Shown here: positions 4,801-47,694 of the stretch, one piece after another
How positions within the stretch are numbered: the stretch's first letter is position 1
Layout: the number at the start of each line of letters is the position of its first letter
Source: Nemertoderma westbladi
Taxonomy: Eukaryota; Animalia; Xenacoelomorpha
Reading direction: 5' to 3'
NCBI GenBank assembly: GCA_032718475.1
Contig: JAUCBJ010005652.1
Coordinates: 62,001 to 126,000, forward strand
Length of the DNA stretch: 64,000 nucleotides
Notes under the pieces: generated by a model
Database searches by the model: none
What the model was told of the DNA's origin: nothing
What the model saw: the letters and a program-made list of their open reading frames with translations, nothing else
Program-made: the position numbers and the translations under genes

Positions 4801-5624
4801 AAAATATGTCCATTTAATTATCAAATAATAAAATTTCAGGGAATAATTTAAATTCATGCCTTTTAATGAATTTAATAAATTGTCATTTTTACGCAATGTA
4901 TAACATTCCCAAAACTCCATTAATTAATAGATCAAGGGAGCGGAGATTTATCTTATTATGAGTATGAGTGTGCGAAGTCTCCCAAACATAGTCAATAGCC
5001 GATAAAATTCATAAAGTCATGTATAAAACAGGACTTGACTATTAAAGAATTACTATTAAATAACATCCCAGATCTGTATGCATTGGAATTACCCTAATTC
5101 TACCGCTAGCTTTACATAATGTCACCATAGCAACAACCACGCTAGAATTAGAATTGAGTTAAGAGAACAATAGAAAGCTTGTCCCATTGAATAGCATAGG
5201 GAATAAATAGTGCACTGATAGTATCCAAGGATACATAATAATACAGTGACATTCTGGAAGGCATTGACTAACGGACAAGTGACCCGAGTGTGTGTAATTT
5301 GTGACAAGTTGTGTGTGTGGTACTTGTGAGTTTATAGGCGAATGTTACTACTAAAGTGTGTTTACAGTAGCCAGTCGCAATCGTAAAGTAACCTAACTCC
5401 AAGGAAAACCTGAAGTACATCTAAGACTTTGGGACGGACAGTTGAGTGACTTGTGCCGGTTGTCGTTGTCGTTGTGCGGCTACGTCGTTGGCGAAAGTAC
5501 AGCGGCTACGACACATCGGCGCTGAGGATCTCGTACTGTCCGGGGGTTGATTGGGGTAGGCAGCGACGCCCGCTCGCCTAAATATAAACTCATTATAATA
5601 TGGATAAACTCATATATAGCAGAT

Positions 5625-5928
5625 ATGACGGAGTTGATAGAAGATGGTCTTAGTATCGGGGAGCGATATACTCTACTTTTACAAGCGTTTGTTGATAGCT
5701 TAATACGCGGTGACGTTAGTCCAACTGCTGCGGAGGACGATGGTCGTTATATCGAACCGCCAATGTCCCAAGAGCAGCTCGCGCGAGTTGGACTATAGAA
5801 AATTCGCTGCTCGATATACGCAGCGTAATGGTACGTATATGGTCTTCTTAACTACTGGTCATCCTATCGATTTACATAATACGGACTATGTCGACTATAT
5901 ATCCTGCCCAGCGGAGTCGGAACCATAA
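5625..5928 (+). pseudogene. Accessory ORF of BEL copy A (~100 aa, one frameshift), unknown function
   Basis: MTELIED...AFVDSLIRG...EDDGRYIEPPMSQEQL / ELDYRK...TTGHPIDLH; homologous to copy C 48685-48958 with many synonymous differences. Confidence 0.65.
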
Positions 5929-6748
5929 ACTGAAATTCGAATGCGAAAATTCTATTCGAAATCGACTCGAAAGAAAAGACACTAAAGAAACAAATAAACG
6001 CGGTAACTCCAACATATATTTGGAATTCTTGATAGAAGCATTGTAACAACAAATAAATATCATCCGCGTTTCCCCTACAAGACGTGCGTCTTTGGTATTA
6101 TTACGATAAATGCCCTAGACCCAACTAATAAACGGAAAGACATAAACATCCACGGAAACGTTGTGTTAAACACAGTTGTGCTCGTTATATTTACTGGAGT
6201 TTCGAGCGAAACTTGTTTGACGTATCACCTATGCTCACTCGGCTCGAACGATCCTGGAGTAAACCTACGATCAGAGTCCCGGAATACTCGGTCAAACCTC
6301 CTCATTCCTTAGTTGGACCTCAGACCTGCGATCCTGGTGGTGTCGCGGATCCTCGCGGACTGTATTCACTGTTCAAAGATCTAGTGCTACCCTAACAATT
6401 AATCGGTAACACTCCGACAGTGATTTCTAGCTAGCCGCCCATCTTACCTAGCCGGATTGTGACGCGGACACCTAATATCATTATCCAACCGTATGGTCGT
6501 TCCCGTTTAACGCGATACAACCCTTCATCAAGGTGAAGGAGAGTGTTGTACGAAACGAGTTAAACGCTATTCTATAAAGATCAAAAAAGACACCTGCGTT
6601 TGTTCAGATAAACGTAAGTTATAACAGTAAGTCCAATCGATAAACGAATTGGCCTTATCTCAGTTCGATTGGGAAATCTCGAATCTCTAAGAAGATATCA
6701 AGCTTAGAAAACCCTATTCTCTGCGAGAGTTTTGGACGAACGTATCCC

Positions 6749-6955
6749 ATGATAAGCGGAGGAAAATCAGCTCGAGGAGAAGCATATCGAAATGGACGAG
6801 ACACCGACCGTAAACCCAAACCTTCTGATGCAATCATATTGCACCCTTCACCCAGGAGTTATAGCCCTCCTTGTAAAGTGGCTCGCCCCAAAGAGAAAAA
6901 GACTCTTGCTAGCTTTAAAAAACTGCGTAAACGCCGTCCGCGCAAGAAAGACTAA
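6749..6955 (+). CDS. Short basic ORF ending just before the PPT (…KEKKTLASFKKLRKRRPRKKD); possibly the end of a longer degraded accessory ORF
   Basis: Nearly identical C-terminus in copy C ORF 47695-48027. Confidence 0.4.
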   Translation: MISGGKSARGEAYRNGRDTDRKPKPSDAIILHPSPRSYSPPCKVARPKEKKTLASFKKLRKRRPRKKD

Positions 6956-7033
6956 CTGTTTAGAGTATTTTTATATTTTAGAAACTGTGATTTTGTATAT
7001 TTTATAGACTTAAATCCCATTTTCTGGGAGCGG

Positions 7034-8208
7034 TGTAAAAGCTTTTGTGGGATAACTGGTTCGTTTGCCTTGCTGGCCAGTTCCCCCCCGGTCGCTAGAA
7101 TACTCTAAAAGGGATTTATAGCTAAAATAGTGCAAGCTACCAGCTTATTGACTGATTTGCTGTACGAAGGTATCTGGGCTCCGTTTAATCGGCCAACCAG
7201 CCTAGGAAAGTTGCGTCATAGCCCTATTTCTGTATCTGCCAATAGAATTTGAGTTGGCTTTGATCTTGACCTATCACAGAGCTACTGAACTGAATTTTCC
7301 TATCTCACTGCTCTTTCTCTGTGTTGGACGGGAGCTTCGTGGAATAAGGGTAGCTGGTATTCTTATAGTTATTCTTATCAGTTTTTAGTGTTGTTGGTGA
7401 TTCTAAGCCAGGAAGAACGGCTTTAGCCCTACACTAGTAGGCTTAATTATAAGGACATATATCCGTTATCTGATGTCTGATCACTGCATACCATACATTC
7501 AACCATACCTAATCAAACAACCTGTGCATACTTTATATTGTTATACTGCTATTTACTGTCAGTTCTTCATAATATGGTTGATGAATTATTATATTTGGAA
7601 TAACGATAAATAACCCCGAAACCCAATATTCTTGATATACCGAAGGTAAGAGAGAAGGGTTACATATAACAATTGTGACTTATGTTGGAGTGGTTTGAAG
7701 TGAATCTAATGTTATTTGATAGACCCTACATGATTCGGTCCGTGTTCCTTTTATATGTGACTAAAATCAGTGAAGATCGGCAGATCAGTGTGCAGTATTG
7801 TGCAGCATTGTGTATGAGTGAACCTGATAACGAAGCATTTCCTAAAGAATGCGCCATATATGTGAATTATAACTAAGCCATATCGTTGTGAGTAGTTTAA
7901 GTCATAACTCTGTTTGTATAAATAGAGCGCCACGTCCTAAAGGAACTGTTAATATTCCCCGAAGGTGAATAATATTGTCAGAGATTATATAATACTGTCA
8001 GTCGAATAATACATTAGGCTTACATAGCAATAAAATTAAGCCGTCGAACCCAATCTCCCGGGTATATCCAGCGGGTGAATGATCGCGCACAGATTGGTTT
8101 CGACTAGTGTAGTGAATTAAATACTTGTCATAGGCTAAAGGTGATTTATTATCTAGAAGACATCCTAATTTGGCGGGTTAAACTGCCAAAGGTCTGAAAG
8201 CGCGAACA
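7034..8208 (+). repeat. 3' LTR of BEL copy A (1175 bp), preceded by a short purine-rich PPT-like GGGAGCGG
   Basis: TG...CA termini; homologous to 18584-19795, 46381-47616, 57052-58287 and 63406-64000. Confidence 0.92.
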
Positions 8209-9575
8209 TCAGCAGTGGTGCGCACTACTGAACAGGCGTTCGAGGGGCTCGAGATGATTCCGAAAGCCTGGATGGTCATCCAGTATTCCACAGGTTTTTG
8301 GCTGAGGTTTCCTTCAGGCCACCACAGAAATCGCAGGCTGTCTCGATCCCTATCCAGCGCCTTAACTTGTAAGAACATGCCTTCTATATCCGAGGCGAAA
8401 GCGATCGAATATTGTCGTAATCTTAAGAGTATTCCCAACAAGGATTGGAGTAAGTTGGGTCCCGGCAACAACTCGGAGTTAAGAGATTGGCCCATGTAGA
8501 GGGCGGAGCCGTCAAATACTACCCGGACTTCGTTGGGTTTACCGGGTTTGGGAACGTAATGATGTGTTAAATAGTACGTTCTCTCAGTTATGGGTGTTTC
8601 TTCCGGTACTCGCTCCGCATATCCCTTGTCGATGAATTTCTTCAGCTGGGTCTTGTACATCTCCTTAGCTGAAGCATTTGCCGTAAGGCGTCGATGTAGT
8701 TGCGCGATTCTCTTCTCTGCCAAGGGTCGGTTATTTATAAAATTAGGTTCTCGCCATCGGAAAGGCAGACCAATCTCATACCTACCTTGATCTTTAAGAA
8801 AACGTGTAGTCGTTTCCTGTATCTGTTTGGCTCTTTCTTCTTCTACCAATAGGGCCTTATCGTAGGAATTAGGCTCTACAGCTTCTTGAGTAAAGAATCG
8901 TACGGCGTGTTCATCGCGAGTCTTCGCGTTGTAACGATCTATCACTTCATTCAGTTCGTCGTTGTAATCGACTTGTCCACCTGGATGGATTAGGTGACAC
9001 AGGTTCACTTGGTTTTGCCAAGTTTCATTTTCCGTAAGGAGATCGATGGTATTCTCCTCGTCGAATAGTTGATGAATATCGTCATTATCTGAGGAGTATG
9101 GTGTTCCCTCAGGTGTGTCGTCTCCCTCACAGATTTCCTCTTCCCATTCACTCACCTGATGGACTTGATCTTTAGGTAGCCTTTCCATGAGAGTCCTACG
9201 GGAAGGTCCAGTAAAGTACCAACCTACTCTAGTTCTTCCCGCATAGGTTTGCAGTTGAGCAGGCCGTTTCTCTAATGTCTCAAGCGCCTCATGCGCATTT
9301 TGGCCGATGAGTATTTGTACCCCTGGGCAGTCGGTGTTGAATCTAGGTATCTCATGCTGCTGGGTGAAATTGTCTTCATCCCAGTTATAAGGTTCCACTT
9401 GGCTGGTAGCGAAGTTCTTTATCGCCACCATTTTTACTGACCTTATACTGTGTTCTCCTAGTTCACCTGGGGGGTGGACAATGCGCCTACATAGTAGTCT
9501 GTAGCTACTGTAGATTTCCAAACCTGCATAATTCCTGAAAGGTTCAACTTAGTTCGGAACTTGGGTTGTCCAACA
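8209..9575 (-). pseudogene. pol: Copy B pol fragment (post-protease region to RT N-terminal half)
   Basis: ORF 8178-9521 closely matches copy A protein (YLTHHYVPKPGKP, RVVFDGS, DIEGMFLQV); truncated at the copy A LTR. Confidence 0.9.
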
Positions 9576-12500
9576 TTCATTTCATTTCATTTGTTTTAAT
9601 CAATTTACTTGATATAGTAAAATTGCACAATTGTACAAGGGTAAGTAAGCATTAAATAAAATAAAAAAGGAAACAAAGCACAGATATCAGTTAATAACAT
9701 AGCAATATATATGGACTAGGGTAGCTGTTAGAATCTGAGTACACGAAAGTGTGGTGGGGCGAGCCATGGTAGTAGGTGGGTGGTGATGTGTGACATGTCA
9801 TTTTCATTAGACATTATAGAATTCCATGATACGGGCGCGTTTTTGATTGATGTTAGTATTTTGTAGTCGGAAGCAGTTCTGTATGAAGTTTGCATTATGG
9901 AAATCATTTTGTGAGGGGCTGGCAGTGCAGATACGCTCAGTGATGGATGTAGTTCTGTATTTGAAGTTTATAATTGAACGTAGCTGTGGCAGGGGGTATG
10001 TGGCCAGTGCTCTGTGATATCCACTTGAAATTCCCTTACGTAACTGGGAGTTACCCATGTTGAGTTGTGAGGCAATGCGGAAAGGTAACTGTAGCTCGAG
10101 ACTGGGGCAATCAAGTGTTCTAACTAAGGTTCTATAGCAACTCCGATAGGCAATGATCGATAATGGTGGGGTCCCTGAGAGTAGATAGAGTGTATTATTC
10201 TCCAAATAGTTCCCAAGAAGTAAGAGGCCACGTTGCACCTTGCGGTGGTAGGCGTCGAGTTTGTCGATATCCTTTCGGCGTAGGGATCCAATAGTCAGAG
10301 TTAATCTGTAGATTATGACAGGGACGGCGAGTGTGTTCCACATCTTAAAGATGGTCTCTAGGTTGAGCCACCTTGCTGTCCATCCTTTGGTATGGAAAAC
10401 TTGCGACATCATGGCTATTGTCTGGATACCATCGTGGAGGTTGCTAGCGGGGTTAGAATTTCCCAGTTTGTGTCCGAGGAATTTCAGATGGTCCGACATT
10501 TGGATTAGTGATCCGTTGACTGTAATGAAACATTCCTTGTGGGTCATATAGTTACGGTTTAGGATCGTCCATTTTGTTTTCTTCATGTCGATTTGGAGGG
10601 ATACCTGTGCAGCTTCCTGTATGAGTATGTCGCACATCTTCTCGACGGATTTAAGCGAGGTTCCCAGGAGTAGGTAATCGTCAGCATAGGCCACTGTACC
10701 AAGCCAGGATGTGTCAATTCGGCATCCGAGGTTACTATGTTCTATTCTGCTTAAGATGTTGGAGGTGTAAAGATTGTAGAGGATAGGTGAGATGAGTGAT
10801 CCCTGTTTCAATCCCCGCGAGACTTTTATTGGAGTTGGGTCGACTAGATTGCCGAATTTGAGGAAGATTTTGCTCGATCCAAAGTAAGCTAAGATAAGGC
10901 AAATAATGTAAGGATTAACATTGTTGTTCAGCATCTTTTCTACTAAGATAGTGTGGTCGACGTTATCGAAAGCCGCCTCAATGTCAAGTTGGCAAACGTA
11001 TACTGGCGATCCTTTCGATGTGTATTGTTCCACCGTTTCCAGTATTGTAGCGACTACTATGTCAGTGCTGTGTTTTCTCTTGTAGGCAGTTTGGTTCCCA
11101 TGTGAGGTCAAGTTGTTTAGATAGTCAGATAGAAGGATATGTTCGAGCACCTTGGCAAGTAGGCTGATGGATGAGACGGGCCTGTATGATGTAGGTTCTA
11201 GGGTAGAGCGACCCTTTCCTTTGTAGATACTTGATATCACTGTATGACCAAATGTAGAGGGGACCTCTTTGAGAGTGAGACAGCAGTTGATGAGTCGGGC
11301 AAGTGTGTCAGAAATTAAATCAGGATTAAGGGATAGGAGGTGTTCAACTGTCATAGATACATAGTCAGGGGCCTTGCCCCTGGAGAGTGAAGATATCGCC
11401 CGTTTAACTGCAAGGGGGGTTATGGTTGGTGGGATAGATGATCTGCACTGCTGTTCTAGAATATCATGGATGTTTTGGAGTTTGGCTGCATCTTTCATTG
11501 TGGTTGAACTGAACTTTTCCTCATTGTGTTTGCGAATAATTGATTGCATTTCTGGGGTGAGGGGCTGATTGTCTTTTCGATTAATGTTGCTCCAGAAATA
11601 CTGTGGGTTCAATGTTCGTTTAGAACACCAGCGGCGGGCAGTGTTCGCAACAAGGTTTGTGTGGAGGAAGTTTCTGAGGCGTCTAGTGGACCGCTTAGAT
11701 TCTTTAAAAGATTCACCGGACAGGTGATTGTCATCCTTCCCATGTGATACCCAAATTTTGTAAAGGTCCTTAGTTGTTTTACTACGTCGGTCAAGTAACT
11801 GTGAGCGTATTCTGATGTTCTTTGTCTTCTTGTTCACCTTAATCGTGGGTATGTGGAGTATAGCTGCAGCCATGATAACGGATTGAATGGTATCGCAAAT
11901 ATTATCAAGTTCTGACTTGGGGGAGCTACACTCTAGAAGGTGATGAAGATCTTTTTGAAGTACTGATAATCCTTCATCCACAGCTGATTTGTATAAGTCC
12001 CGTTGCGCGGTTGTTGCTCTGTTCCAAGCAAATTTATGTTGCCGTACCTTCTTGTGTGGGTTTTCTGTTGGGTTGGTTATAGGTTGGCATATCTTGAAAT
12101 GGGCAGTGATAGGTGTGTGATCGGATAGGTTGTTGGAAGGGTCGTGCTCGTATACCCGGCCATTGGTGAAAGAGTTTAGACAGTTACTGGAGGTGACTAT
12201 GTGATCGAGGTAAGATTCGCCGTGTGCCCCTTTAAATGTTACACATGGTCCTTGGAGGGCTGCATGAGTGTCAGCTGCCACTAAGCTGTTTGTACGTAAA
12301 AAGTTATTGAGGAGGTGGCCCCTTTCGGAGCATCCATGTTGACTTGTTCTGGGTCCTTGTAGATCGCCTAGATCTGCATTGAAGTCAGCGAGGATGAGTG
12401 GGGTTGCCATTGGATACAAGTTAATAAGGGCTCGGAGGCGTCCAAGGAACTCATGATATAAGTATATCTCTTTACCGGAATCTGGGGCGTAGGGAGACAG

Positions 12501-12796
12501 TATGAGGTAGTATGAGTTGCTACCTACCAGCTGAGCCAGTACTCCAACAGTTTCATCTCCTGAAGTAATTTTTACCGGCTCGGATTTCAGGATTCTCTTT
12601 TTAATGTATAAAGCGGATCCACCGGCTCCTCTACGTCTGTTGGGGTTGCTCATAAGTTCACTAGTTATACCTACGCAGTGGAAGCGACCGTCCAATGGTC
12701 GTAGAGTAGTCCTGCACTCGATATCATCAAGCCAGTGTTCCTGTATGGCGACGATGTCACAAGAGTTGAATGTCATAAAGACATGTCACAAGAGTC
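9576..12796 (-). mobile_element. Non-LTR retrotransposon (APE endonuclease + RT; RTEX-like or L2/CR1 group, clade unresolved), 5'-truncated, (TGAAA)n 3' tail, inserted in the copy B protease region
   Basis: Removing it rejoins TTGTCCAACA/AAGATGTCTTC, matching copy C; TTCATTTCATTTCATTT at 9576. Confidence 0.9.
9807..12776 (-). CDS. LINE ORF2: apurinic endonuclease + reverse transcriptase, 989 aa uninterrupted
   Basis: QEHWL, ADFNA, LDHIV, SDHTPI (APE); YRPVS, DIEAAFDNV, GLKQGSLISP, YADD (RT). Confidence 0.92.
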   Translation of the reverse strand: MTFNSCDIVAIQEHWLDDIECRTTLRPLDGRFHCVGITSELMSNPNRRRGAGGSALYIKKRILKSEPVKITSGDETVGVLAQLVGSNSYYLILSPYAPDSGKEIYLYHEFLGRLRALINLYPMATPLILADFNADLGDLQGPRTSQHGCSERGHLLNNFLRTNSLVAADTHAALQGPCVTFKGAHGESYLDHIVTSSNCLNSFTNGRVYEHDPSNNLSDHTPITAHFKICQPITNPTENPHKKVRQHKFAWNRATTAQRDLYKSAVDEGLSVLQKDLHHLLECSSPKSELDNICDTIQSVIMAAAILHIPTIKVNKKTKNIRIRSQLLDRRSKTTKDLYKIWVSHGKDDNHLSGESFKESKRSTRRLRNFLHTNLVANTARRWCSKRTLNPQYFWSNINRKDNQPLTPEMQSIIRKHNEEKFSSTTMKDAAKLQNIHDILEQQCRSSIPPTITPLAVKRAISSLSRGKAPDYVSMTVEHLLSLNPDLISDTLARLINCCLTLKEVPSTFGHTVISSIYKGKGRSTLEPTSYRPVSSISLLAKVLEHILLSDYLNNLTSHGNQTAYKRKHSTDIVVATILETVEQYTSKGSPVYVCQLDIEAAFDNVDHTILVEKMLNNNVNPYIICLILAYFGSSKIFLKFGNLVDPTPIKVSRGLKQGSLISPILYNLYTSNILSRIEHSNLGCRIDTSWLGTVAYADDYLLLGTSLKSVEKMCDILIQEAAQVSLQIDMKKTKWTILNRNYMTHKECFITVNGSLIQMSDHLKFLGHKLGNSNPASNLHDGIQTIAMMSQVFHTKGWTARWLNLETIFKMWNTLAVPVIIYRLTLTIGSLRRKDIDKLDAYHRKVQRGLLLLGNYLENNTLYLLSGTPPLSIIAYRSCYRTLVRTLDCPSLELQLPFRIASQLNMGNSQLRKGISSGYHRALATYPLPQLRSIINFKYRTTSITERICTASPSQNDFHNANFIQNCFRLQNTNINQKRARIMEFYNV

Positions 12797-15700
12797 ACAA
12801 AGATGTCTTCGGCTAGTTCTTTGTCGATGAATGTTCCTGTGCTGCCGGAGTCAAGGAGGGCGTTCACTATGTAGCTCCTTTTTAATCCGTGGACTCTCAA
12901 CTGCACTACGGGAAATTCTCGGATTCCTACGTTGGAAGTTGGCGCTTTCCAAGATGGTTGTCGGTCAGGAATAGTTAGGGGGAGCTCACTATCGGTTTCA
13001 GTCTCATACGTAAGTGCTCGATACACTGCGGTGTTTATTAGATAACAGGATTTGTTTTCGTCGGAGAATTCATCCGTGTAGAATCCTTCCATCTCAGAAC
13101 TTTGGTCAGTGTCGTTCACATCACTGAATTGGACATGTAGTTCGGACTCACTTACCTGACTCGGGCTGTTTCTTTCAAATTCGGTGTGCAACAAGATACG
13201 ATGTTTCGCGCCGCACTTAGCACACCTCGCATCGGAGTAGCAGGTTCGCCATTGGTGTCCTTGTCTGAGACAATTATAACATAACCGCTTATCCCACATG
13301 ACATCACGTCTATCTTTTAGGGATTTCTTTAAGAATTCATCACACACACTTAAACGGTGGGGCCCGTCGCACAATGCATATTTTGGTTTGATGTTACTTA
13401 CTTTACCTTGGGTAGTGTTGTGCACACTCGTTCTTTCCTCGGGCTTTCTTCCATGAATTCTCTTAGGAGACGTAGGAGGAGTTTTTGTTACCTGTTCTCT
13501 CCTGTCACTAGTTCGAGACTTAAATTTACTTACGTCCTTAGGCGCTTTGTTGACATAGTAAGATCTTTCGGTGTCTTTCCCGTTGTTCTCCTCTTGAGAG
13601 GCCTGGCTTTCGCCGTCGTCTGTATAACATACTGGTGTTCTCCTTTCTCCTAGAAACGGGTTTCTCACTTACCTTATTTTCCGGTGTCTTCTCTCTGGAC
13701 TGCTTTAGGAGCTGTAATTTTACCTCTCCATCTAAGAATGACATGAGATCAGCCATGGTAGGGTCTCTTCGTTGTTGTTGCATCATATACAGAACTCTTT
13801 TGTCCCAACGAGTACCCACTCCACGCTTTGGCAAGGTAGATGCTACAGCTCCAATAACCATAGAACTCTGATACTCATGAGACTTACCTAGCCAATCTAA
13901 TTGTCTACAAATCTCCTGGATCTCATCGGAAAATTCTATAATCCCGCTGCTAATAAACTTTCGTGGCGCTACCAATTTCGCATACAAATACCTAGCTATG
14001 TTATTCCTATTACCATACCTGATGTTTAGTGTATCCCAAACTTGTCTTAATCCATCTGGATGTCCAATAAACTTTAACGCCATTAACTTGGGAGATCCTT
14101 CCAAGCACTCGATGAGGAATCTAAGTTTCTCTCCGTTAGATAGCATAGAGTTCTGTATGTTATCTTTATAATATTCATTAAAAGGCAACCATTTCATCTC
14201 ATCTCCGTTGAACTTGACGATCTCTCCCACCTTTACCGCTTGGCGGGCTTCGGTTCTAGCCATTTGACGCGTAAAACTTTCTTGGGCCATCGTATTATTT
14301 AATATCGAGTTATCGGTATATAAATTTCTCGGATTAGGATCAGGTCTATAGGGAATATCATTATCAACAGGTTTATCGTTACCCTTAATAGGGTTTACTA
14401 TAGGAGTTTCTACTTCACTAGCAGTATAGATGCGTGTAGGCTCCACACATTGCGCATGAAATACTTCAGACCTAACAGGTTGACACATTGTTACAGGGGG
14501 TGGTGGTATACCTCTTTGTATATTTACCAATTTATCGCGTTCTAACGCGATACTCTGCTGCACTTCTTGCAACTCTAACCTACCCTCTCTGACTGTTCCC
14601 TTTAACTGTTGAACAGTCCCTTCCATCTCTCGGACCTGCTGAGAGGAACACAAACGGTGTTCCCTCAGCTGCCCGAGCAGGAGACCCATCTCCCGCCGTC
14701 CCTCATCCACCCACTCTACCGCCGAAGCGGGAGCCGCCAACATAGTAGCGGGTAGACAAGGGACGATGGGCGATAAATCGTTAATGTCTCGCTCGGCGTC
14801 CAGGACTGGAATTGACTCTGGAACAGTCCTACTGGGTACAGGTAGTTTAGTACTGTACAAAGGGAATTTAGAGTTAGGTTCTGGAAGTACAGGGGTCTCT
14901 ATCACAGAAGGGGTGGCTTCGAGAACAGGCCTAATTATTTCAGGCTCATCTACTATAGTAGGGAGTCTTTCTACTCTAATAATTTGGTCTGTGGGTTCTG
15001 TACTACCTAAGTCTGCACTAGCTAGTTCGCCTTCTCACAGCTGGGGGCAAATTAGGCAATATCTGATGGTGAGGCGTTCTTCTACGTCTGCTGGAACGAG
15101 ATCTATTTCCTCCGCCTTCAGGATCTGTTGTATCGCCTTCATCAGATGATGTAAATCCCTGTCTCTTGGGAGTAGATCGACTTATCATCTGCATATACTT
15201 AGCTGTTCTTTGTTTATTGAAGTAATCTTGCTTCTCTTGAAGATTTTCCAACTCTAGTTGGACTGTCTCTTCAGAACCCCTCCATTCTGCTGCTGCCACT
15301 GCCTCTGCCGCTTTTCTTTCTGCTTCTGCCGCTGCTACCTTTCTTTCAGCATCTGCCTCTGCCGCTGCCGCTTTTCTTTCGGCTTCTGCCGCTGCCTCTG
15401 CCACTGCCGCTGCCGCTGCCGCTTTTCTTTCAGCTTCTGCCGCTGCCGCTGCAGCTGCCGCCTTTCTTTGAACTTCTGCCGCTGCCACTGCTGCTACCTT
15501 TCTGTCTTCTATCCGTTTTTTCTTTAATTGTTCTTCCTGTTCCCTAGCGAGGAGGATGCTTTCATCAAATTTAGCTTGCTCTGTGACTAACATTTCCGCA
15601 TCTAATGCGTCTAACACAAATTTGGCTCCTTCACTAGTAGGGTGAAGTCCAGCCAGACGTCTCCTCAACTCTTTGTCACCTATAAATCATTGATAGTCCG

Positions 15701-16679
15701 ACAGATAGATGTCAATAGCGTCCTTCTTCTGAGGTTTCTCCAATGTCGCTTCGCTTTCCACTTGAGAAAAGGTAGCGTCTGTTGATTCTCCGTGGGTTGA
15801 GTGCTCAGTTAGCTGAATTTTCCATTGGGATGTTCCTTGAACTTTAAGGCTCACCCATTGGAACCAAGTCTTTACGGCAACTTGCAACGACGTGTCTTGG
15901 CTTCTTTTCGAGGCTTCCTCAAAGGCCGATAGGATTAGTCTGATTCTTAGGATACGTACTCGAACTTGATAAAGCAGCTCTCCCTGCTCTTGAGGTCCTT
16001 GGGGTTGTTGAAACAGTTGTTCCTCTAATCGCTCCAAAGAGCTGAAGAATCCCTGTACATATCCGGCTGCTGACCTCTTCCACACAGCTGGATCTCTAGT
16101 GTCCTTTACCACTCCCATCCTGTATAAGTCCTCCCAGGCAGCTTCCGATAAGTTAAACGGGAGTCCGGGTCCGGGGAAGTTCCATTGCGTCTCGACAATA
16201 GACTTCAGTTCCTCCTTCGTGTATCCCGCATAACTGTCCTTGGTCGATCGCTTACTTCTCGCCCAATCAATTTGATGTTCCTCCACCGCAATCAATACTC
16301 TAGTGAGTACGGCTTCAGGAAGAATGAGAAGTGGATCCGAATAAACTACATCTGCCATCTTTGCTCCGCGCTCGGGTGGCAACTCTACAGTATCTGAACT
16401 ACTGGAGCTATCGGGCTGCTGAGAAATAAGTTCTCGGCTCGGGTGTTGCTGCTGTTTAACAGCTGCCTCTGTGCCGGCCTCCGTGCTTTGAGCCCGAGTG
16501 CCTATGATAGACCTACGGTGCTTTACTAGTCTAGGGTCTGATACTACTACTGAAGGGATGACTTTTCTTACAGTAGGAGGGGACTTGGACTTCGGTCTCA
16601 AATGTTCGGCACTCCTGTCGGAGTCGCAGACTGTTTTTTCTAGGAGACTATCTGACAGAGTTTGCTTTGTGTCAGCCAT
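12797..16679 (-). pseudogene. gag: Copy B gag + aspartic protease, fragmented by stops and frameshifts
   Basis: Colinear with copy C ORF 50585-54784; KFNGDEMKWLPF (DUF1759-like), BEL-type triple Cys/His motif, LLDSGSTGTFI. Confidence 0.88.
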
Positions 16680-18572
16680 GTTTGATTGTACAGTTGAATG
16701 TCTACTACTATAACGACAGTTAAAGCAAGTATATTAATTCAGTATCAACTGTAAGCCTAGTAATTAATTACCGATATCGTTACTAAATGTAACGCGATAT
16801 ATATATAATATATTAGAATACTGGTATACACTTACAGTATATATATAAGTATTATTACAGACTAGGGTTTGTCACAGAATACCGGTATATAATTTCAGCA
16901 CAAATATATAAATATATAATAAGCCTACCGTGAATACCGGTATACAGCTTACACTTATAGTATATATAAGTATAATTATAGACTAGAATTAATTACAGAA
17001 TACCGGTATATAATTTTAGCATAAATTTATATAAATAAATATAATAAGCCTATAGTAAATACCAGTATGTCAATTATTTTATGATAATTGAATTTCTGAG
17101 TTTTAGGGTTACTTTTCTTTACTTTGTTACTGTTATTTAAGCAGTAGTCCAACTGATATTAAGACCTAATTGATGGATAACAGGCCTACTATTTTATAAA
17201 TCGGTTTGAGTTGATTTATAATATATATATACCCGTATAATGGGTTTTGACAATATTCGAAATAAATGTTATTATTTCTGGTAAGGAGTCACTACACAGA
17301 AGCTGAACGCTCTCAGCGAAGTGCTACTTGTGGGACACTAAAACAAATAATTCTACTTGACTAAGTTACTTATTACTACAAATTACGTACAATTATGGGG
17401 TGAGATTACAATCTCTAAATAAACACAAAAATTACACGTACAAATTTTAGGGTAATTTTACAGGAAATTTACAAACCAGCCTAACAAGAGGTTATAATTT
17501 CTGGTTATTACAACGGACAGGATACTACGGTATTTGAAAATAATTAAGCAGTAGTAAATAAATTGCGTTGTCCAGATAAGAAAATACCACCGTCTGACGA
17601 CTTATAGTCTTTAGCTGTACAGCTCTATAAGTACTACGTTATGTACCCGGAGTGTTCCTACCTAGAAGTTAATTACCACAGCCAACCAGAGCTAATGTGC
17701 CTATTAACCACTTTACAACACAAATATACCGCCTACTCACTAATTACCTTCGGAAAGTATTGTACACTAAACCCTAAATTAGGTACAAGTACTTATACAA
17801 CAAATAACCAGTAGTTAAAAATACTTGTACAGCTAAAAGAACCACGGTATCTGCTGGAGTGACTAGAGCATAAAATCACCAGTCTTTACCTACGCCAAGC
17901 AGCCCTGATGTAGTACCGGGGTTAATTTAACTATAACGGTATGTATAACAAGCACAATTACTGTAGGAATTAACTTGGGGAGTTATGTATGTTGCGAATA
18001 CTCGCATAGACTCTGAATAATAAATAAATACGCTACCCGTGCAGACTACACAAACAAAATACAGACCAAATGCTGGCAGACTACTATCAAGCCCAAATAA
18101 ACTACAGTATATGCAGACTCCGAAATGGTTAGTTAGTATGCGTTCTAACCGAGTAGTACGACTTATTCTTTCGGGGGGGATTTACCTTACCGCACTGGAT
18201 GCCCCTACCTTCCTAACTAGTACTTTATCGGACATACACTCTACACACACTGCAATCTCTTCAGACTTAACAACAACCAAACAACAATCCAGCCTACAAA
18301 TTATTTATACAATCTGAGCAGGCTTACACGCCTTCTGCTCAATATTACACTTACAAATAAATAAAACTGACAGAAATAAGTAAAATCCCAATAAAAAACC
18401 AGGGCGGCCGTCCCTGATTAAATATCAAGACCTACCGGTATATAATTATAAAAATCGAATAATACTGCTGTACCTGTAAGTACCGGTTCGGGCAGTTGGG
18501 TAGTTAGGCCTACAGCTTACCGTTCGACCGGTACCTTCGACTTTATTGCCTACGGTGCAATAAAGAATCTGA

Positions 18573-18583
18573 AAATCTATTAT
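18573..18583 (-). promoter_or_regulatory. Non-tRNA primer-binding site of copy B (sense ATAATAGATTT), complementary to its own LTR at 19373-19383
   Basis: Abuts the LTR CA end; no TGG; exact 11-nt reverse complement inside the LTR. Confidence 0.75.
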
Positions 18584-19795
18584 TGTTCGCGCTTTCAGAC
18601 CTTTAGCAGTTTAACCTGCCAATTTTAGGTGTCCTCTTTTTTATAAATCGACTTTAGCCTATAACAATTATTTAATGCACATGAAGTAACATTAGCCGAA
18701 GCCAGTCTATGCGCGATCATTCACCCACAGTTAAGGGAGACTGGATTCGGATGCTTTGACCTTATTGCGTTGCAGACCTACTGTATTATTCGATTGATTG
18801 TTACTATATAATCACTGACAATATTATTCACTTTCAGGGAAATATTAACAGTTCCTTTAGGACGTGGCGCTTTAAGTATAAAACAGAGTTATGACTTATA
18901 CTAAACACAACGAGATGGCTAATGATTTTCATAAATAGCGCATTCTTTAGGAGATGCTTTATTATCTGTCACACTGCTGCATACGATTTCACACTGCTGC
19001 ACACTGATCTGCCGACCATCACTGAATTTGATCATATATAAGGAGGATAGCCACTGACACATGTAGGGATTATGAAATAGCATTTACTGCACACTAAAAC
19101 CAATGTAATGTAAGTCGCAGTTGCTACCGGTAACCGGTCCCTCTAACCTTTAGTAAGCAAGAAGATTGGGGTTTTATGATTATTTATCGATATTCTCCAA
19201 ATATAACAAGATATCCATCAACATATAACCATTAATAACAGACAGTAAACAGAAGTACAATAATGCGGTGATATTCAGCCAGTATCGGTAATACCGGTAC
19301 CGCAGTTGCAGGTGCAGTATCAAAGTTGTTCAGTCAGTGCAGACTGCAATTTCATCAGTCAGGTGATCGGAGATAATAGATTTACGTTCTTGTAATCAAA
19401 GCCGTCTAATGTTGGCCAAAGTCTGAAACTTCTAACACAGAAGTACAGAAGAATCCTAAGCCGGTGTTCTGGGCTTAGAAAAGATACACACTGACTGAAT
19501 TGCGTGGGTTTCTGTAGGCACTGTCCAACACAAAGTGAAAATCGCTCTGATTGGCCGAGCAGAACAAAGAACAAAGAAAAGCTCCACGCTGGCAGTAAAT
19601 CAGCTGACAGATGTCGTCATCTGAACTACCCTCTATTTAGAGTATTTGGCGTATTGCGGCATAAAATGGCTTGTTATGTCCGCTAAAACACCTACAGGGT
19701 ACATTGCGGAGAAAATGGCTTGTTATGTCCGCTAAAACAACTAAACAGTTCATTGCGGAGAAAAATTACTGGTTATATCCGCAAAAGCTTTTACA
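18584..19795 (-). repeat. 5' LTR of copy B (1212 bp), with three ~50-bp tandem repeats in U3 (19653-19783) and a CCAAT box (~19549)
   Basis: TGTTCGCGC...GCTTTTACA on the plus strand; ATTGCGG..AAAAT..GTTAT.TCCGC repeated three times. Confidence 0.92.
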
Positions 19796-20443
19796 ATAAC
19801 TTTCGGAAGCGGTTCTTCATACGGAAGGGGGAATCGTTTATGAGATTGCGATCGTGAGCGAAATATCCCGTTAAAGTGAATATATATGGAGCTATTAGCT
19901 GGAAAGGGAAATCGCCACTAATGATACTACCAGGTAAAGCCCGAATAAACTCGTCAATGTATTGCGATATGGTGCATAAAGGAATTATTCCCTTTTTGAA
20001 GTCAACATTTCCCGAAAATGACTACGTGTTACAGGCAGACTCGGCTCCTTGCCATAAAAGTAAAGAAACAATGGCATTCCTCGATAAAAACAATGTAAAC
20101 TATTCACCGGGGTGGTGGCCTCCTGAATCACCAGATTTAAATGCCATTGAGTGCGTTTGGCATGAATTGAAGGAACATTTTTACGCAATAAAGCGCAACC
20201 ACGTAATAAAGAAGAACTGATTTCTGGAATAACAGATTTCTGGCAAAACATTATCACTGTTGAGAAATGTCGCAATTACATTTGCCATAATCTAAATGTC
20301 ATACCAATGGTTCAAACAAACAACGGTGGTCCAACTCTCAGTTAATTTATGTTTAATTGTAATTACTGTATAATATTATTTCATTACATACTGGCATTAC
20401 TCGCCTCCATTCGAGCTCGAGGTCAATTATTTGGAGACAATTG
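19796..20443 (+). mobile_element. 3' part of a Tc1/mariner transposon (frameshifted transposase); target of the copy B insertion
   Basis: ORF 19876-20220: YGAISWKG, QADSAPCH, WPPESPDLNAIECVW; candidate right end …GGAGACAATTG followed by TA at 20444. Confidence 0.82.
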
Positions 20444-21020
20444 TATACAAAACTATGTATAATCAAAATTTAATCTAAATTATACCTTCAGCTTCACATG
20501 GGGGAATGTGAATGACGCATCATGGCCGAGATAGGATTTGCGTCAAGATTCCCCTCTTCTCGCATACTGCGTAATTGTAAGGTTTTACTGTGTTGAATTG
20601 AGTATATTTGATGAATGCCCCATTGCAATATTTCTAGTTAAAGAGTTAATTGTATTTTATTTATTTATCAAGCACGTTAAGTAAAAACCTTACCGGTAGG
20701 TATGTCAGTGCCAAAGTATGTATTAAACTAAAAAGCAACAAGACCTAGACGTTGCATGGAATCTGTGATCAGCTGACGGCAGCCAGCTGATCGGTAGGTT
20801 TCGCCCCGCAACTGAAGGCATTCTCAGGAGGCCAAGCCAGGAAATGTAGAGAGAGATTCCCAAAGGGGGACGGAACAGGTAACGAAATGAAGATATGTCG
20901 TCTGTACTGTAACTAACCACTGGAAAGCAGCACCGTAAACTTGCGCCAGTCACGTCTCTGCTTGTTGTTAACCTGCTTGTTCTGCTTGTTTTGATGAATG
21001 TCCCATTGCAACCAATTGTT

Positions 21021-21205
21021 TTGGACAGGCGTCCACTGTAGTACCCACGATGACAAATAGTGTTGGACAGGCGTCCACTGTAGTACCCACAACGACAAAT
21101 AGTGTTGGACAGGCGTCCACTGTGGTACCAACGATGACAAATAGTGTTCGACAGGCGTCCACTGTGGTACCCACGATGACAAATAGTGTTGGACAGGCGT
21201 CCACT
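21021..21205. repeat. 42-bp minisatellite, left half (~4.4 units)
   Basis: TTGGACAGGCGTCCACTGTAGTACCCACGATGACAAATAGTG tandem. Confidence 0.95.
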
Positions 21206-22616
21206 CCCTATAAGCATCAACACGTCAAAAACACGTGGATACGACGTAATTATTTGACGTCAACGTGTTGAAAATGACGTCTTGGCCACGTGTATTTTGG
21301 AAGTGTCAAACACGTGTTTGAGCACGTCAAACCATGACGTGTTACAGTTTACGTCAAATGACTTGTTAGACACGTGTCAATTACGTCATCAGACGTCAAA
21401 TACTACACTGGAACACCACACAAGCACGTCAAATGACGTGCTAGACACGTACTGTAACAATAACAGACGCCAAATTCAAATAACTACACCACACAAGCAC
21501 TTACGCGTCGCTTTTTACATCGCTTAGATCCATGACATTATGATTGAAATTGACGGTGTTTGTTGATACTATAATAAAGAAAAAACATTATTATATAATG
21601 TAACCAATAATAAACCAAATATAATATAAATAAATATCTAAATATAATAAACCTAATGGGTCAATTTGGCCATTTTCTTGTCATTGGTGGTGCGCAATAG
21701 CACCACTCACACCCACCATAGTACCTTCCTACCCACTCACTCCCACTATAATACCTTCCTACCCACTCACACCCACTTCATTACCTTCCTACCCACTCAC
21801 ACCCACCTCATTACTTTCCTACACACTCACACCCACCTCATTACTTTCCTACACACTCACACCCATCATATTACCTTCCTACCCACTCACACCCACTATA
21901 TTACCTTCCCACCCACACACACCCACCATATTACCTTGATACCCACTCACACCCATTTCATTACCTTCCTACCCACTCACACCCACCTCATTACCATCCT
22001 ACCCACTCACACCCACCTCATTACTTTCCTACACACTCACACCCACCTCATTACCATCCTACCCACTCACACCCACCATATTACCTTCCTACCCACTCAC
22101 ACCCACCATATTACCTTCATACCCACTCATACCCACTTCATTACCTCCCTACCCACTCACACCCACCATATTACCTTCCTATCCTACCCACACGCACCCA
22201 CCTCATTACTTTCCTACCCACTCACACCCACCACCAATATAAATAACTAACTAAAATATACCCACCACTAATATAAATATACTGTACTCATACTGTAGTC
22301 AGTGAGTAGGTAAAAGTGGTAAGTAGATGTGTCATTAAGACGTGTTCAAGACGTAATTTTAGGTAATTATTTCCAACATGAAAAGTATCACACAGATACG
22401 TGCCATCAAGACGTGTTCATGACGTCATTTTAGGTAATTATATCCACCATGTATAAGTCTCATACAGGAACGTGTCAACAAGACGTGTTCAAGACGTAAT
22501 TTTACGTAATTACGTCAACCATCAAAACTTTGAGTTCTTGCAACAAACATAATTGACGTAAAATGACGTCCACATACCTGTTGAGGTGTAAAAATAGACG
22601 TCAAATGCTTATAGGG
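21206..22616. mobile_element. Non-autonomous CMC/EnSpm (CACTA-like) element inserted in the 42-bp minisatellite
   Basis: 12-bp perfect TIR CCCTATAAGCAT/ATGCTTATAGGG, 2-bp TSD CT, ACGT-rich subterminal repeats. Confidence 0.82.
21702..22235. repeat. 30-bp minisatellite (~17 units) inside the CMC element
   Basis: TTACCTTCCTACCCACTCACACCCACCATA tandem. Confidence 0.95.
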
Positions 22617-22823
22617 CTGTGGTACCCACGATGACAAATAGTGTTGGACAGGCGTCCACTGTGGTAGCCACGATGACAAATAGTGTTGGACAGGCGTCCA
22701 CTGTAGTACACATGATGACAAATAGTGTTGGACAGGCGTCCACTGTAGTACCGACGATGACAAATAGTGTTGGACAGGCGTCCACTGTAGTACCCACGAT
22801 GACAAATACTGTTGGACAGGCGT
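22617..22823. repeat. 42-bp minisatellite, right half (~5 units)
   Basis: Same unit and orientation as 21021-21205. Confidence 0.95.
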
Positions 22824-23164
22824 ACAATCCTGTACACCTTATGAATAAACCGGATGCCACAACGAATAAAATCGAAACAAAATCGAAACATAAACCAAAA
22901 CCAACCAAGTAAACAAAACAAACCCAGTCTTGCTCGGGACAGGGAAATATAAACGTTGTACCAGGTGAGTAACCTAAAATTCCATACCCCCCCCCCCCCC
23001 CCATCATTAAAAAGAAATATGGGTGTACTTTCACTGAAAGTTATCTAGGCATACAGTACTGTATAATGTATAATATCCTGACAAGCCAAAAATAGTAGGC
23101 CTATAATAGATAATAATAATATATTTATAATACTGTATTATATATATTTATGTTCATATTGCAG

Positions 23165-28730: not shown

Positions 28731-29228
28731 GCTGTAACCTAAATTAATCCAGCGATTAGACCTCGACATTATTAGTATCCAAACACCATTTAGACCTCGA
28801 ACGAAAGTTTAGATTCAGAAAATAGTAAAGAAAAAAAGTCGAAAAGTAAGTAAATAATGTGTAGGCGTATATGAATGAATACAATATAAATCCAGAATTC
28901 CTAAGTAAAATAGCACAATAGGTTGCAATCGTATTATATATTAAATGTGTTTTTAAATTAATTAAATAATTACTAAATTATTAAATTGAAACATTTAGAA
29001 AGTTTAGATTGTTAAAATATTTAGAGCGTAAGTATCAAACAACCGTAATATTTCGATGAAAGTGAAAGGGGGTGTAGGTGTGGGTGTGATTGCAGAGCAG
29101 GGTTGAGTTGAAGGTTTGAAATACCCTTTTAAGACATTGTTCGCCAAGGCCAACTATTATCTCAATACAAAAAATATAGAGGTCCAAAGTCAATCTAACG
29201 CCCAATTACAAATAAAAATAAACAGTGA

Positions 29229-31800
29229 CAGTACCACAGCGCCTCAACGTTGTTACCTAACTGCCCCACCAGCAGTACCACAGTGCCACTAGAGGTTACC
29301 TAACTGTCCAGCCAGCAGTACCACAGTGCCACTAGAGGTTACCTAACTGCCCCACCAGCAGTACCACAGTGCCACTAGTGGTTACCTAACTGTCCCACCA
29401 GCAGTACCACAGTGCCACTAGAGGTTACCTAACTGTCCAGCCAGCAGTACCACAGTGCCACTAGTGGTTACCTAACTGTCCCACCAGCAGAACCACAGTG
29501 GCACTATTGGTTACCTAACTGCCCCACCAGCAGTACCACAGTGCCACTAGTGGTTACATAACTGTCCCACCAGCAGTACCACAGTGCCACTAGAGGTTAC
29601 CTAACTGTCCAGCCAGCAGTACCACAGTGCCTCTAGTGGTTACCTAACTGCCCCACCAGCAGTACCACAGTGCCACTAGTGGTTACCTAACTGTCCAGCC
29701 AGGAGTACCACAGTGCCTCTAGTTGTTACCTAACTGCCCCACCAGCAGTCACAGTGCCTCTAGTGAGTGGTTACCTAACTGTCCAGCCAGCAGTACCACA
29801 GTGCCACTAGTGGTTACCTAACTGTCCCACCAGCAGTACCACAGTGCCACTAGTGGTTACCTAACTGTCCAGCCAGCAGTACCACAGTGCCACTAGTGGT
29901 TACATAACTGTCCCACCAGCAGTACCACAGTGCCACTAGAGGTTACCTAACTGTCCAGCCAGCAGTACCACAGTGCCACTAGTGGTTACATAACTGCCCC
30001 ACCAGCAGTACCACAGTGCCTCTAGTGGTTACCTAACTGCCCCACCAGCAGTACCACAGTGCCTCTAGTGGTTACCTAACTGCCCCACCAGCAGTACCAC
30101 AGTGCCTCTAGTTGTTACCTAACTGCCCCACCAGCAGTCACAGTGCCACTAGTGGTTACATAACTGCCCCACCAGCAGTACCACAGTGCCACTAGTGGTT
30201 ACCTAACTGTCCAGCCAGCAGTACCACAGTGCCACTAGTGGTTACATAACTGCCCCACCAGCAGTACCACAGTGCCTCTAGTGGTTACCTAACTGCCCCA
30301 CCAGCAGTCACAGTGCCTCTAGTGGTTACCTAACTGTCCAGCCAGCAGTACCACAGTGCCACTAGTGGTTACCTAACTGTCCCACCAGCAGAACCACAGT
30401 GGCACTATTGGTTACCTAACTGCCCCACCAGCAGTACCACAGTGCCACTAGTGGTTACATAACTGTCCCACCAGCAGTACCACAGTGCCACTAGAGGTTA
30501 CCTAACTGTCCAGCCAGCAATACCACAGTGCCTCAAATGGTTACCTAACTGTCCCACCAGCAGTACCACAGTGCCACTAGTGGTTACCTAACTGTCCAGC
30601 CAGCAGTACCACAGTGCCACTAGTGGTTACATAACTGCCCCACCAGCAGTACCACAGTGCCTCTAGTGGTTACCTAACTGCCCCACCAGCAGTCACAGTG
30701 CCTCTAGTGGTTACCTAACTGTCCAGCCAGCAGTACCACAGTGCCACTAGTGGTTACCTAACTGTCCCACCAGCAGAACCACAGTGGCACTATTGGTTAC
30801 CTAACTGCCCCACCAGCAGTACCACAGTGCCACTAGTGGTTACATAACTGTCCCACCAGCAGTACCACAGTGCCACTAGAGGTTACCTAACTGTCCAGCC
30901 AGCAGTACCACAGTGCCTCAAATGGTTACCTAACTGTCCCACCAGCAGTACCACAGTGCCACTAGTAGTGGTTACCTAACTGTCCAGCCAGCAGTACCAC
31001 AGTGCCACTAGTGGTTACATAACTGTCCCACCAGCAGTACCACTGTGCCACTAGTGGTTACCTAACTGTCCCACCAGCAGAACCACAGTGGCACTATTGG
31101 TTACCTAACTGCCCCACCAGCAGTACCACATTCCCACTAGTGGATACCTAACTGTCCAGCCATCAGTACCACAGTGCCACTAGTGGTTACATAACTGCCC
31201 CACCAGCAGTACCACAGTGCCTCTAGTGGTTACCTAACTGCCCCACCAGCAGTCACAGTGCCTCTAGTGGTTACCTAACTGTCCAGCCAGCAGTACCACA
31301 GTGCCACTAGTGGTTACCTAACTGTCCCACCAGCAGAACCACAGTGGCACTATTGGTTACCTAACTGCCCCACCAGCAGTACCACAGTGCCACTAGTGGT
31401 TACATAACTGTCCCACCAGCAATACCACAGTGCCACTAGTGGTTACATAACTGTCCCACCAGCAGTACCACAGTGCCACTAGAGGTTACCTAACTGTCCA
31501 GCCAGCAGTACCACAGTGCCTCTAGTGGTTTCCTAACTGCCCCACCAGCAGTACCACAGTGCCACTATTGGTTACCTAACTGTCCAGCCAGCAGTACCAC
31601 AGTGCCACTAGTGGTTACATAACTGCCCCACCAGCAGTACCACAGTGCCACTAGTGGTTACATAACTGTCCCACCAGCAGTACCACAGTGCCTCTAGTGG
31701 TTACCTAACTGTCCAGCCAGCAGTACCACAGTGCCACTAGTGGTTCCCTAACTGCCCCACCAGCAGTGCCACAGTGCCACTAGTGGTTCCCTAACTGCCC
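29229..31800. repeat. 43-bp minisatellite (~60 units) with higher-order structure, overlapping the hexosaminidase stop codon
   Basis: CAGTACCACAGTGCCACTAGTGGTTACCTAACTG(T/C)CC(C/A)(A/G)CCAG tandem. Confidence 0.97.
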
Positions 31801-33510
31801 CGCCACTGCAATTGCGTCGTTTTTATTAAGATTCGAAAGTTCTTTCTGCCTTATAGACTCGCATTGTTCGAGAATGGCCTGTAGTTGCTTGGCAACTGGT
31901 TCTACGTAAGATTCAATCAATTCATCGATGTGATAAACCGGCATAAAGTCGACTAGAGCCGATCGGGTTAGAGTCTCTGTAGCAGAGAGCAACTCGACGA
32001 AATGTTTAGCTTTACGTTGTAGGTCGTCAACACGAAGCAGATTGATTTGGTTGCGTTTGAGTTTGGCGGGATTCAGCCAGCCAGCCACGTATTGGCCGTG
32101 GACGAAGTCCTTAGAGCGGTGCAGATAGCGGTTCAGATCAACTACAATCTGGTAGATATTGGCGCCCGGGAAATCGCCGACGCCGGAAGATCCGTCGTCC
32201 AGTTCCATGGATTCTAGACGGAGCGGGTTGAGGAAACCCAGCGATCTGGAGACCTCCTCGTGGAGTTGGTTGGTAAAGCAACCGGTGTCCAGAGCTCGGA
32301 GACATACAACCAGCGAGGGGACAGACACCGGTAGCAACTCGCACTGGATCGCGAAGTGGTCGTAGCGAGACCAGCCGGTGAGCGCGACTCCGCGGAAATC
32401 GATCGAGTGCGGAAGCTCGTTGACGACGTTCAACCAGAGGACCTGCGGGACGACTTGGTTGAGAATAGGAGTGGTTAGTTTGTCGCTGTTTGTGGACCCT
32501 TTGAAGCAACTGGCGCCCCAGACGCGAGGGAACACAGCCGCGTAGTTGGCCCACATGTTGGGCGGGTAGAGTTGCTTGTGGTTGTACCAGCGGTAGTTCC
32601 AGACCATCGGCTCGACCAGGCGACCCAGATCGAGTTGTTTCATTGCGTCAACAGAGGCCGTGCGAATCATATCGTCCCAGATTATCGGTGTGACGCGTTT
32701 CTCGCGAACGTATTTGGCTACGGTTACGACGTGGTTGAGAAAGAACAGCGTTTTATCGCCGTGGAATGTTTCACGTAGAACTCGCTGTGTCAGCTCGTTC
32801 TCCGCAATGTTATAAACTTCGTCGCAGCCGATGTGAAGGTATTTAACAGCGGGATGCATCGCAAGGATTTGATCTATTATAGTTTCTATGAGTCTCTGAG
32901 ATTCGTCCAAACTTGGGTTTATTACCATCGAGTACAACGGCACTTCCCTAAGATGCGCGAATTTACCGTGTTTCAGAACGAATTCCATGTGACCGTAAGT
33001 CTGGATCAACGGAATAACATCCAGGTTGTGAGCGGCGGAGAGTTCTAGTATCTCTGCGATATCGGCGCTCTGGTAGGCGTGTTTAGCTGATAAGACGGAA
33101 AGTTCTCCGGAATACGGAAAAGTATCTTCGTACTCTATCAGTAAACCGGTTGCTCCCCATTGGGATAAGTAAGGAATTATCTTCCTGAGATAAGAAATAC
33201 TAGGGGGAGATCCTTTTAAGTCTAGATGTACGAGTTTATGTTTATCTTTCATTAAATCGGGTTTGGATTCGCATTTAATGTCAACGTCCATCTTACAGTT
33301 TGTGTCTCCGTACTTTACGAACCGCCCTCTGTTGGAGTCCGGACTGGTGGACGCGACTGACGTGCTGTGGGAGATCGACTTACTAAGATTATTGTGTGGG
33401 AAGGTCAACTTCTCATTAGCGATCGATGTGTACCCGAAATAACTTACTGAAGAAAACACAATGATAGCCCCCAATAGTTTGAGATAAAACTGCAACCCTC
33501 TTCTCCTCAT
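31780..33510 (-). CDS. HEXDC: GH20 hexosaminidase D-like protein with N-terminal signal anchor, single exon
   Basis: LVHLDLKGSPP, GATGLLIEYEDTFPY, PLIQTYGHMEFVLK, catalytic HIGCDEV, WDDM, LTGWSRYDHF; hydrophobic N-terminus. Confidence 0.92.
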   Translation of the reverse strand: MRRRGLQFYLKLLGAIIVFSSVSYFGYTSIANEKLTFPHNNLSKSISHSTSVASTSPDSNRGRFVKYGDTNCKMDVDIKCESKPDLMKDKHKLVHLDLKGSPPSISYLRKIIPYLSQWGATGLLIEYEDTFPYSGELSVLSAKHAYQSADIAEILELSAAHNLDVIPLIQTYGHMEFVLKHGKFAHLREVPLYSMVINPSLDESQRLIETIIDQILAMHPAVKYLHIGCDEVYNIAENELTQRVLRETFHGDKTLFFLNHVVTVAKYVREKRVTPIIWDDMIRTASVDAMKQLDLGRLVEPMVWNYRWYNHKQLYPPNMWANYAAVFPRVWGASCFKGSTNSDKLTTPILNQVVPQVLWLNVVNELPHSIDFRGVALTGWSRYDHFAIQCELLPVSVPSLVVCLRALDTGCFTNQLHEEVSRSLGFLNPLRLESMELDDGSSGVGDFPGANIYQIVVDLNRYLHRSKDFVHGQYVAGWLNPAKLKRNQINLLRVDDLQRKAKHFVELLSATETLTRSALVDFMPVYHIDELIESYVEPVAKQLQAILEQCESIRQKELSNLNKNDAIAVAGQLGNH

Positions 33511-33849
33511 AACAAATATAAATTGTTGAAATAGGTAGGGGGTTAAAGGGCTACGGCTAAACTAGACCTACTATACTTTGTTGATTACTAGTGGAACTGA
33601 TTGATAAAAACTGGCGTTAGCGGTACGTACATCGGTCGCTATGGCACAACAATGTGTACAGTATACCTGTATACAGGTATAGGCTTACCTGTATTCAGAT
33701 GGAAAGTGAAATAATAACTTTCGGTATGGTATGGAGCGAGCACGAGATATGGTATATCAATATCAGTATTCAGGTTAGCAATTGCAAAACTCTTCCTATA
33801 GTAGTAGTAGTCCAGGAGTCTACTAAAACATAATAATTATGATACTGTG

Positions 33850-47616: not shown

Positions 47617-47694
47617 CCGCTCCCAGAAAATGGGATTTAAGTCTATAAAATATACAAAATCACAGTTTCTCAAATACGAAAATACTCTAAACAG

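Follow-up and report, generated by a model that had tools for sequence, protein, structure and literature searches.

BEL/Pao-type retrotransposons in the genome of Nemertoderma westbladi probably prime reverse transcription as Tf1 does, using an 11-nucleotide segment (11-mer) of their own long terminal repeat (LTR), as judged from sequence, and some form of self-priming is very likely. The window analysed here, a stretch of 64,000 nucleotides, contains LTRs of one family that belong to elements B, C (twice) and A, and part of an LTR from element D. In B and C, the primer-binding site (PBS) pairs with a segment inside the element's own LTR. This self-pairing is real and lies far beyond chance.

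The elements differ in age and completeness. B is an old copy, with broken gag frames, a non-LTR insertion and element A inside its reverse transcriptase (RT). The two LTRs of C show 0 mismatches in 1236 nt and are flanked by the target duplication GGCTG. Because this young element lacks RT and most of integrase, it must have moved in trans, and its identical LTRs and target duplication indicate that its cis sites worked recently. The 5′ LTR of A falls beyond the window. Protein profiles identify BEL/Pao domains, namely DUF1759 (gag) in B and C, and Peptidase_A17, Integrase_H2C2 and DUF5641 in A. The RVT_1 profile finds no match in A, yet the YMDD motif is present and homologues align at 40–45%; specifically, the RT–RNase H region is 40–45% identical to sea urchin, coral and ascidian elements. 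Roughly 3 kb separate pol from the 3′ LTR in A (3950–7033) and C (47617–50584), and these stretches are 83–91% alike in parts, with no frame longer than 103 amino acids in that of A.

Elsewhere in the window, three host genes occur as single long intronless frames at 31780–33561, 35761–36609 and 40497–43022, corresponding to a hexosaminidase D-like protein (whose matches across animals reach only 34–45%), a ribosomal S10-like protein and a large-subunit GTPase. Tandem arrays with units of 42, 30, 43, 54 and about 146 nt occupy 20900–22900, 29100–31700, 33850–34900 and 38500–39400. Just outside the B LTR, positions 20000–20350 resemble what we take, from a motif, to be a fragment of a DNA-transposon transposase.

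Table 1. Positions of the BEL/Pao-type elements in the window and of the features relevant to priming.
Feature	Positions	Strand	Remarks
B 5′ LTR	18584–19795	−	1212 nt, TG...CA
B PBS	18573–18583	−	Directly after LTR, without TGG; window reads AAATCTATTAT
B candidate self-primer	19373–19383	−	800 nt from LTR end; window reads ATAATAGATTT
Presumed CCAAT box (−171) and TCAGTC initiator-like motif (−115) upstream of B 11-mer	19493–19554	−	
Predicted helix adjoining PBS duplex	18587–18716	−	18716–18711 with 18592–18587; invariant in 4/4 LTRs
Hairpin just 3′ of B PBS	18541–18565	−	C has same stem, different loop
B internal region	8209–16733	−	gag-pro in several broken frames
Non-LTR element inside B internal region	~9576–12797		
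Interruption of B pol	8209		A inserted in RT of B
C 5′ LTR	57052–58287	−	1236 nt
C PBS	57040–57051	−	11 nt plus 12th pairing base
C second exact PBS copy	56958–56968	−	83 nt downstream of first
C candidate self-primer	57795–57805	−	Pairs with 57051–57041; duplex extends to 12 bp
C gag-pro frame	50585–54817	−	RT and most of integrase deleted
C 3′ LTR	46381–47616	−	Purine-rich tract before it
A pol frames	396–3949	+	RT (YMDD), Peptidase_A17, Integrase_H2C2, DUF5641
A 3′ LTR	7034–8208	+	1175 nt
A candidate self-primer	7459–7469	+	ATATCCGTTAT; homologous site
D partial LTR	63406–64000	−	97% identical to A; cut by window end; no PBS after it

An earlier note on this DNA had claimed perfect pairing between the B PBS and an LTR 11-mer. 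A check of coordinates and letters bears this out: AAATCTATTAT at 18573–18583 and ATAATAGATTT at 19373–19383 are exact reverse complements. B and C differ at positions 2, 4, 7 and 11 of the 11-mer and, as had also been claimed, each of these differences is mirrored in PBS and LTR. The length of 11 nt, equated by the earlier note with that of the Tf1 self-primer, holds for the 11-bp duplex of B but not for the C and A-type duplexes, which have 12 bp. In both B and C, the 3′ end of the LTR 11-mer pairs with the first base past the LTR, which is the geometry that a primer needs.

Each PBS pairs with its own LTR over 11 nt (B) or 12 nt (C), whereas cross pairs (the B PBS with C or A LTRs, the C PBS with B or A LTRs) reach 5–6 nt at offset 0 and do not exceed 9 nt when offsets 0–5 are allowed. 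The flanks of three 3′-LTR or solo LTRs match over at most 7 nt. In the composition-matched null that had been proposed, dinucleotide-shuffled LTRs keep the match at offset 0 in only 7/5000 (B) and 3/5000 (C) cases. The corresponding counts are 19/5000 and 34/5000 at offsets 0–5, and 34/5000 and 8/5000 in a less strict search in which matches may also span splice junctions.

The pairing segments lie at a homologous LTR site in B and C, as the earlier note supposed, although automatic alignment with MAFFT alone places the B 11-mer out of register with those of C and A because B has indels on both sides of it. With a manual anchor, each of the three LTR pairs shows about 75% identity over the 20 nt that precede the 11-mer. 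The 11-mer is preceded by T, starts with A and is followed by C in all three LTRs, and an AAGCC...GGCTT hairpin lies 54–93 nt upstream in each of them.

This register also yields a third pair. The PBS expected for A was predicted beforehand from ATATCCGTTAT and then seen in public contigs. Specifically, when contigs from four public runs were compared at the PBS of B, the predicted A-type letters were found adjoining the junction at a loose end before 18580 in run X1 (16 contigs, agreement 0.62 over 30 letters, among the 18 of 41 loose ends listed). The twelfth pairing base is present too in this sequence, which is a majority call unphased with any A LTR. Among the rows listed (18 of 41 and 24 of 526), four further PBS types occur in 2–4 contigs each, with their LTR partners out of view; all their differences from B fall at positions 2, 4, 6 and 7. 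Because PBS types vary at these four positions, one host tRNA cannot fit all of them. In addition, at least five joints in runs X1 and X3 (4 of 15 listed joints and one further listed row) leave the B sequence at 19372, the base that follows the 11-mer on its 3′ side.

Comparison of B, C and A assigns the changes to branches, as each variable site is a singleton: 2 and 7 belong to B, 4 and 11 to C, and 6 to A. The four compensatory changes that the earlier note ascribed to B are therefore four mirrored differences between B and C, only those at positions 2 and 7 having arisen on the branch of B. Its proposal that the pairing is maintained and not the sequence holds. The 11-mers are identical at 7, 8 and 8 of 11 positions between subfamilies and, with flanks at about 75%, are no better conserved than their surroundings, yet pairing is perfect in each, and the third pair appeared as predicted.

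All five variable pairs have changed on both sides and stay Watson–Crick, including three transitions for which a G–U step was open. In contrast, only one of nine variable pairs in the predicted U5 helices of four LTRs shows a two-sided change, the other eight being one-sided. This contrast gives a Fisher p of 0.003; a hand calculation restricted to the three transition sites gives about 0.02. The comparison is biased and the contrast inflated, since perfect pairing was the reason for choosing B and C and since A and D are almost the same sequence. The all-Watson–Crick pattern in these sequences favours a primer copied into the PBS over independent compensation, and lends indirect support to the earlier suggestion that copying during plus-strand synthesis could rewrite the PBS. 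As no RNA other than the primer serves as template for the PBS, templated rewriting would point to the 11-mer as that primer. In Tf1, about one cDNA in two carries a DNA copy of the primer as its PBS (PMC11042837, available excerpts).

These features suggest the following cycle for the window elements. The transcript would start at the A of the 11-mer, which would fold onto the PBS across 750–800 nt. A cut by RNase H after base 11 would free the 11-mer to prime reverse transcription, and minus-strand DNA would start at the last LTR base. Plus-strand synthesis would then copy the primer into a new PBS, such that a single LTR mutation could be passed on to the PBS in a subsequent cycle, leaving mirrored changes.

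Calling the LTR 11-mer a primer requires that the transcript starts there. Transcription commonly starts at a purine preceded by a pyrimidine, and the T before and A at the start of the 11-mer in all three LTRs fit this rule, as far as letters can indicate. Self-priming with another geometry, in which the transcript starts elsewhere, is unlikely. A start at the TCAGT(C/T) motif, which lies at −115, −105 and −81 relative to the 11-mer in the three LTRs, would give a long primer bearing a hairpin; a start downstream would leave the 11-mer only in the 3′ LTR copy, which would then prime. Consistent with an upstream start, CCAAT occurs 50–140 nt before TCAGT(C/T), a conserved hairpin lies between this motif and the 11-mer, and no TATA match is present within 300 nt upstream of the 11-mer, including near −30. 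However, the complementarity ends sharply at 11–12 nt, when a longer primer should be copied further, and the addition of at least 30 nt upstream abolishes the predicted duplex in B.

Folding predictions for a transcript that starts at the 11-mer depend on where the RNA ends. For B RNAs that extend no more than 20 nt from the PBS start, and for C RNAs that extend no more than 40 nt, the mean predicted probability of the PBS duplex is 0.89–0.98. It drops to at most 0.03 when B is extended to 40 nt or more and C to 60 nt or more, where the duplex costs 3–17 kcal/mol. One longer B fragment has a predicted duplex probability of 0.24–0.88. For the third duplex of the Tf1 pretzel, on the 3′ side, no partner common to B and C was found. 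A hammerhead-like CTGATGA in B was discarded as a candidate, being missing from A and C. A tRNA gene search found none in the window, and an Rfam search at 18000–20000 gave no match.

The PBS of C is doubled. CGAACA, the last six LTR bases, is repeated before the second copy and the hairpin is repeated after it (56920–56975, minus strand). B carries only a decayed look-alike at this place, and in each of runs X1 and X3 three contigs have PBS-side sequence preceded by a stretch that is not LTR; together these suggest that the doubled PBS may be an older trait.

It is improbable that the duplex is a structural long-range pairing, kept by selection for packaging, dimer formation or circularisation, while a tRNA half or another small RNA serves as the primer. 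Half-tRNA primers without TGG do exist in Copia lineages (available text of PMC6317226), the C and A 11-mers are near-palindromes, and in the predicted C fold the second PBS copy captures the 11-mer. Against this reading, the B 11-mer is not palindromic, the first pair of the duplex lies precisely at the LTR boundary, no G–U pair occurs at the three transition sites, and a separate host RNA would be required for each of at least six PBS types, which differ at as many as five positions. Chance or a one-off DNA rearrangement is most improbable and largely refuted: the 11-mers are AT-rich, their register is missed by automatic alignment and the loosest null still retains 7/200 matches for B (1/200 for C), but three different sequences pair at the same site, all four PBS changes would be mirrored with a probability of about 4e-5 if placed at random, and only 1/5390 and 0/5890 internal 11-mers match their own LTR.

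The self-match between PBS and LTR has counterparts in distant relatives. A profile scan recovered 15 loci (L006–L020; 33–46% identical) from bacterial genome bins; they carry animal-type BEL/Pao elements and are likely host contamination. The end of the 5′ LTR is definable in six of them (L007, L008, L009, L011, L014 and L019) and not fixable in the others, which were left out (L006, L010, L012, L013, L015, L016, L017, L018 and L020). None of the six carries TGG after the LTR, and four have an 11-nt self-match, three of these across a predicted splice junction. In L011 the match is contiguous (6301–6311 with 6415–6425), lies at offset 4 past the LTR end and recurs in 2/5000 shuffles. L007 (1381–1718), L008 (1356–1806) and L014 (13601–13988, read from the 3′ LTR because the 5′ LTR is cut) have predicted GT–AG introns in the LTR whose joints would pair over 11 nt with the PBS; such matches arise in 5/5000, 11/5000 and 1/5000 shuffles, respectively. 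L007 and L008, which come from one bin and are closely related, are counted as a single lineage; they differ at two exon-1 positions, and each difference has its counterpart in the PBS. The joint of a predicted GT–AG intron in L009 (5855–6016) pairs at 10/11 positions and fails the strict test, as does L019 (from 4679 onward), in which the self-match is only 5 nt contiguous and the site begins with ATAAC, like the Tf1 PBS. For the window family itself, a splice-built primer was rejected, since the match is uninterrupted and no strong acceptor turned up in its vicinity.

In an RT tree, the window element sits on a long branch, no labelled clade references (Sinbad, Suzu, Pao and others) being included, and primer types do not cluster. 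LTR pattern scans returned 0 hits in viral contigs and 0 in metagenome contigs, protein-based scans confirmed no locus in either, and five LTR-pattern matches of 19–20 nt were set aside as chance.

A broader reading, which we offer tentatively and with slightly more doubt than confidence, is that self-priming may be the standard way of priming in a broad section of aquatic-animal BEL/Pao that is as yet undescribed, and a third origin beside those in Gypsy and Copia. The primer would be the capped RNA start, contiguous here and spliced together in some relatives; the mirrored PBS changes would be a fossil record of primer copying; and the ATAAC-like start in common with Tf1 would reflect a common enzyme constraint. 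If such a self-primed branch exists, tRNA-free priming occurs in all three LTR superfamilies, which bears on the proposal, made in the accessible portion of PMC3601003, that self-priming preceded tRNA priming. Annotation tools that require a tRNA site would then miss such elements. In a very high-copy family, covariation would show directly from the genome whether the PBS is rewritten by the primer.

We found no report of BEL/Pao self-priming in the literature, and subscription papers, supplements or Repbase entries may hold one. A term look-up in PMC554778, PMC3118150 and PMC6238403 found no mention of PBS or tRNA, and self-priming is not linked to BEL/Pao in the available portions of PMC3601003, PMC8220671, PMC5445492 and PMC5443660.

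The window elements agree with Belpaoviridae in their DUF1759 gag, Peptidase_A17, integrase zinc finger, DUF5641 and PR-RT-RH-IN order, in their TG...CA LTRs of 1.2 kb, target duplication and purine tract before the 3′ LTR, and in 42–45% identity to sea-urchin, coral and ascidian elements. The ICTV profile of this family describes an 18-nt PBS for tRNA-Arg or tRNA-Gly and priming by host tRNA, with replication poorly understood (PMC8742986). In contrast, neither B nor C has a PBS of this kind, and no TGG follows the LTR in B, C or any of the six relatives. The elements are of BEL/Pao type by their proteins only and depart from the ICTV profile in the PBS.

Published accounts describe self-priming in Tf1/sushi and predict it in Tcn1 and TAR (excerpts of PMC6317226, PMC7175516 and PMC4600332). 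For the TAR lineage (Houba, Osr-1), as here, the prediction comes from LTR–PBS complementarity alone (PMC6317226, same excerpt), but these are Copia elements of plants with an unrelated Pol order. In the Ty3/Gypsy chromoviruses Tf1/Tf2/Tj1, Tf1/sushi and Tcn1, about 11 nt past the 5′ LTR pair with the LTR and there is no tRNA site, as in the window elements. The latter are not members of the Tf1/sushi group, as they belong to another superfamily, have BEL/Pao proteins and show no chromodomain match; no TATA box was found at the expected place either. Tf1 needs three duplexes, according to the accessible part of a preprint (bioRxiv 10.1101/2022.12.06.519325), whereas only one of the two flanking duplexes, the predicted and invariant helix on the LTR side, is evident here. 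In Tf1, the first 11 bases pair with the PBS and RNase H separates base 11 from base 12 (PMC7175516, in the excerpt available). The Tf1 PBS begins with ATAAC (PMC11042837, likewise in part), as does the A-type PBS, with GTAAC in C and ATAAT in B. One mark of the Tf1 type, a PBS that is perfectly complementary to an LTR segment and abuts the LTR end, is also what these BEL/Pao-type elements carry.
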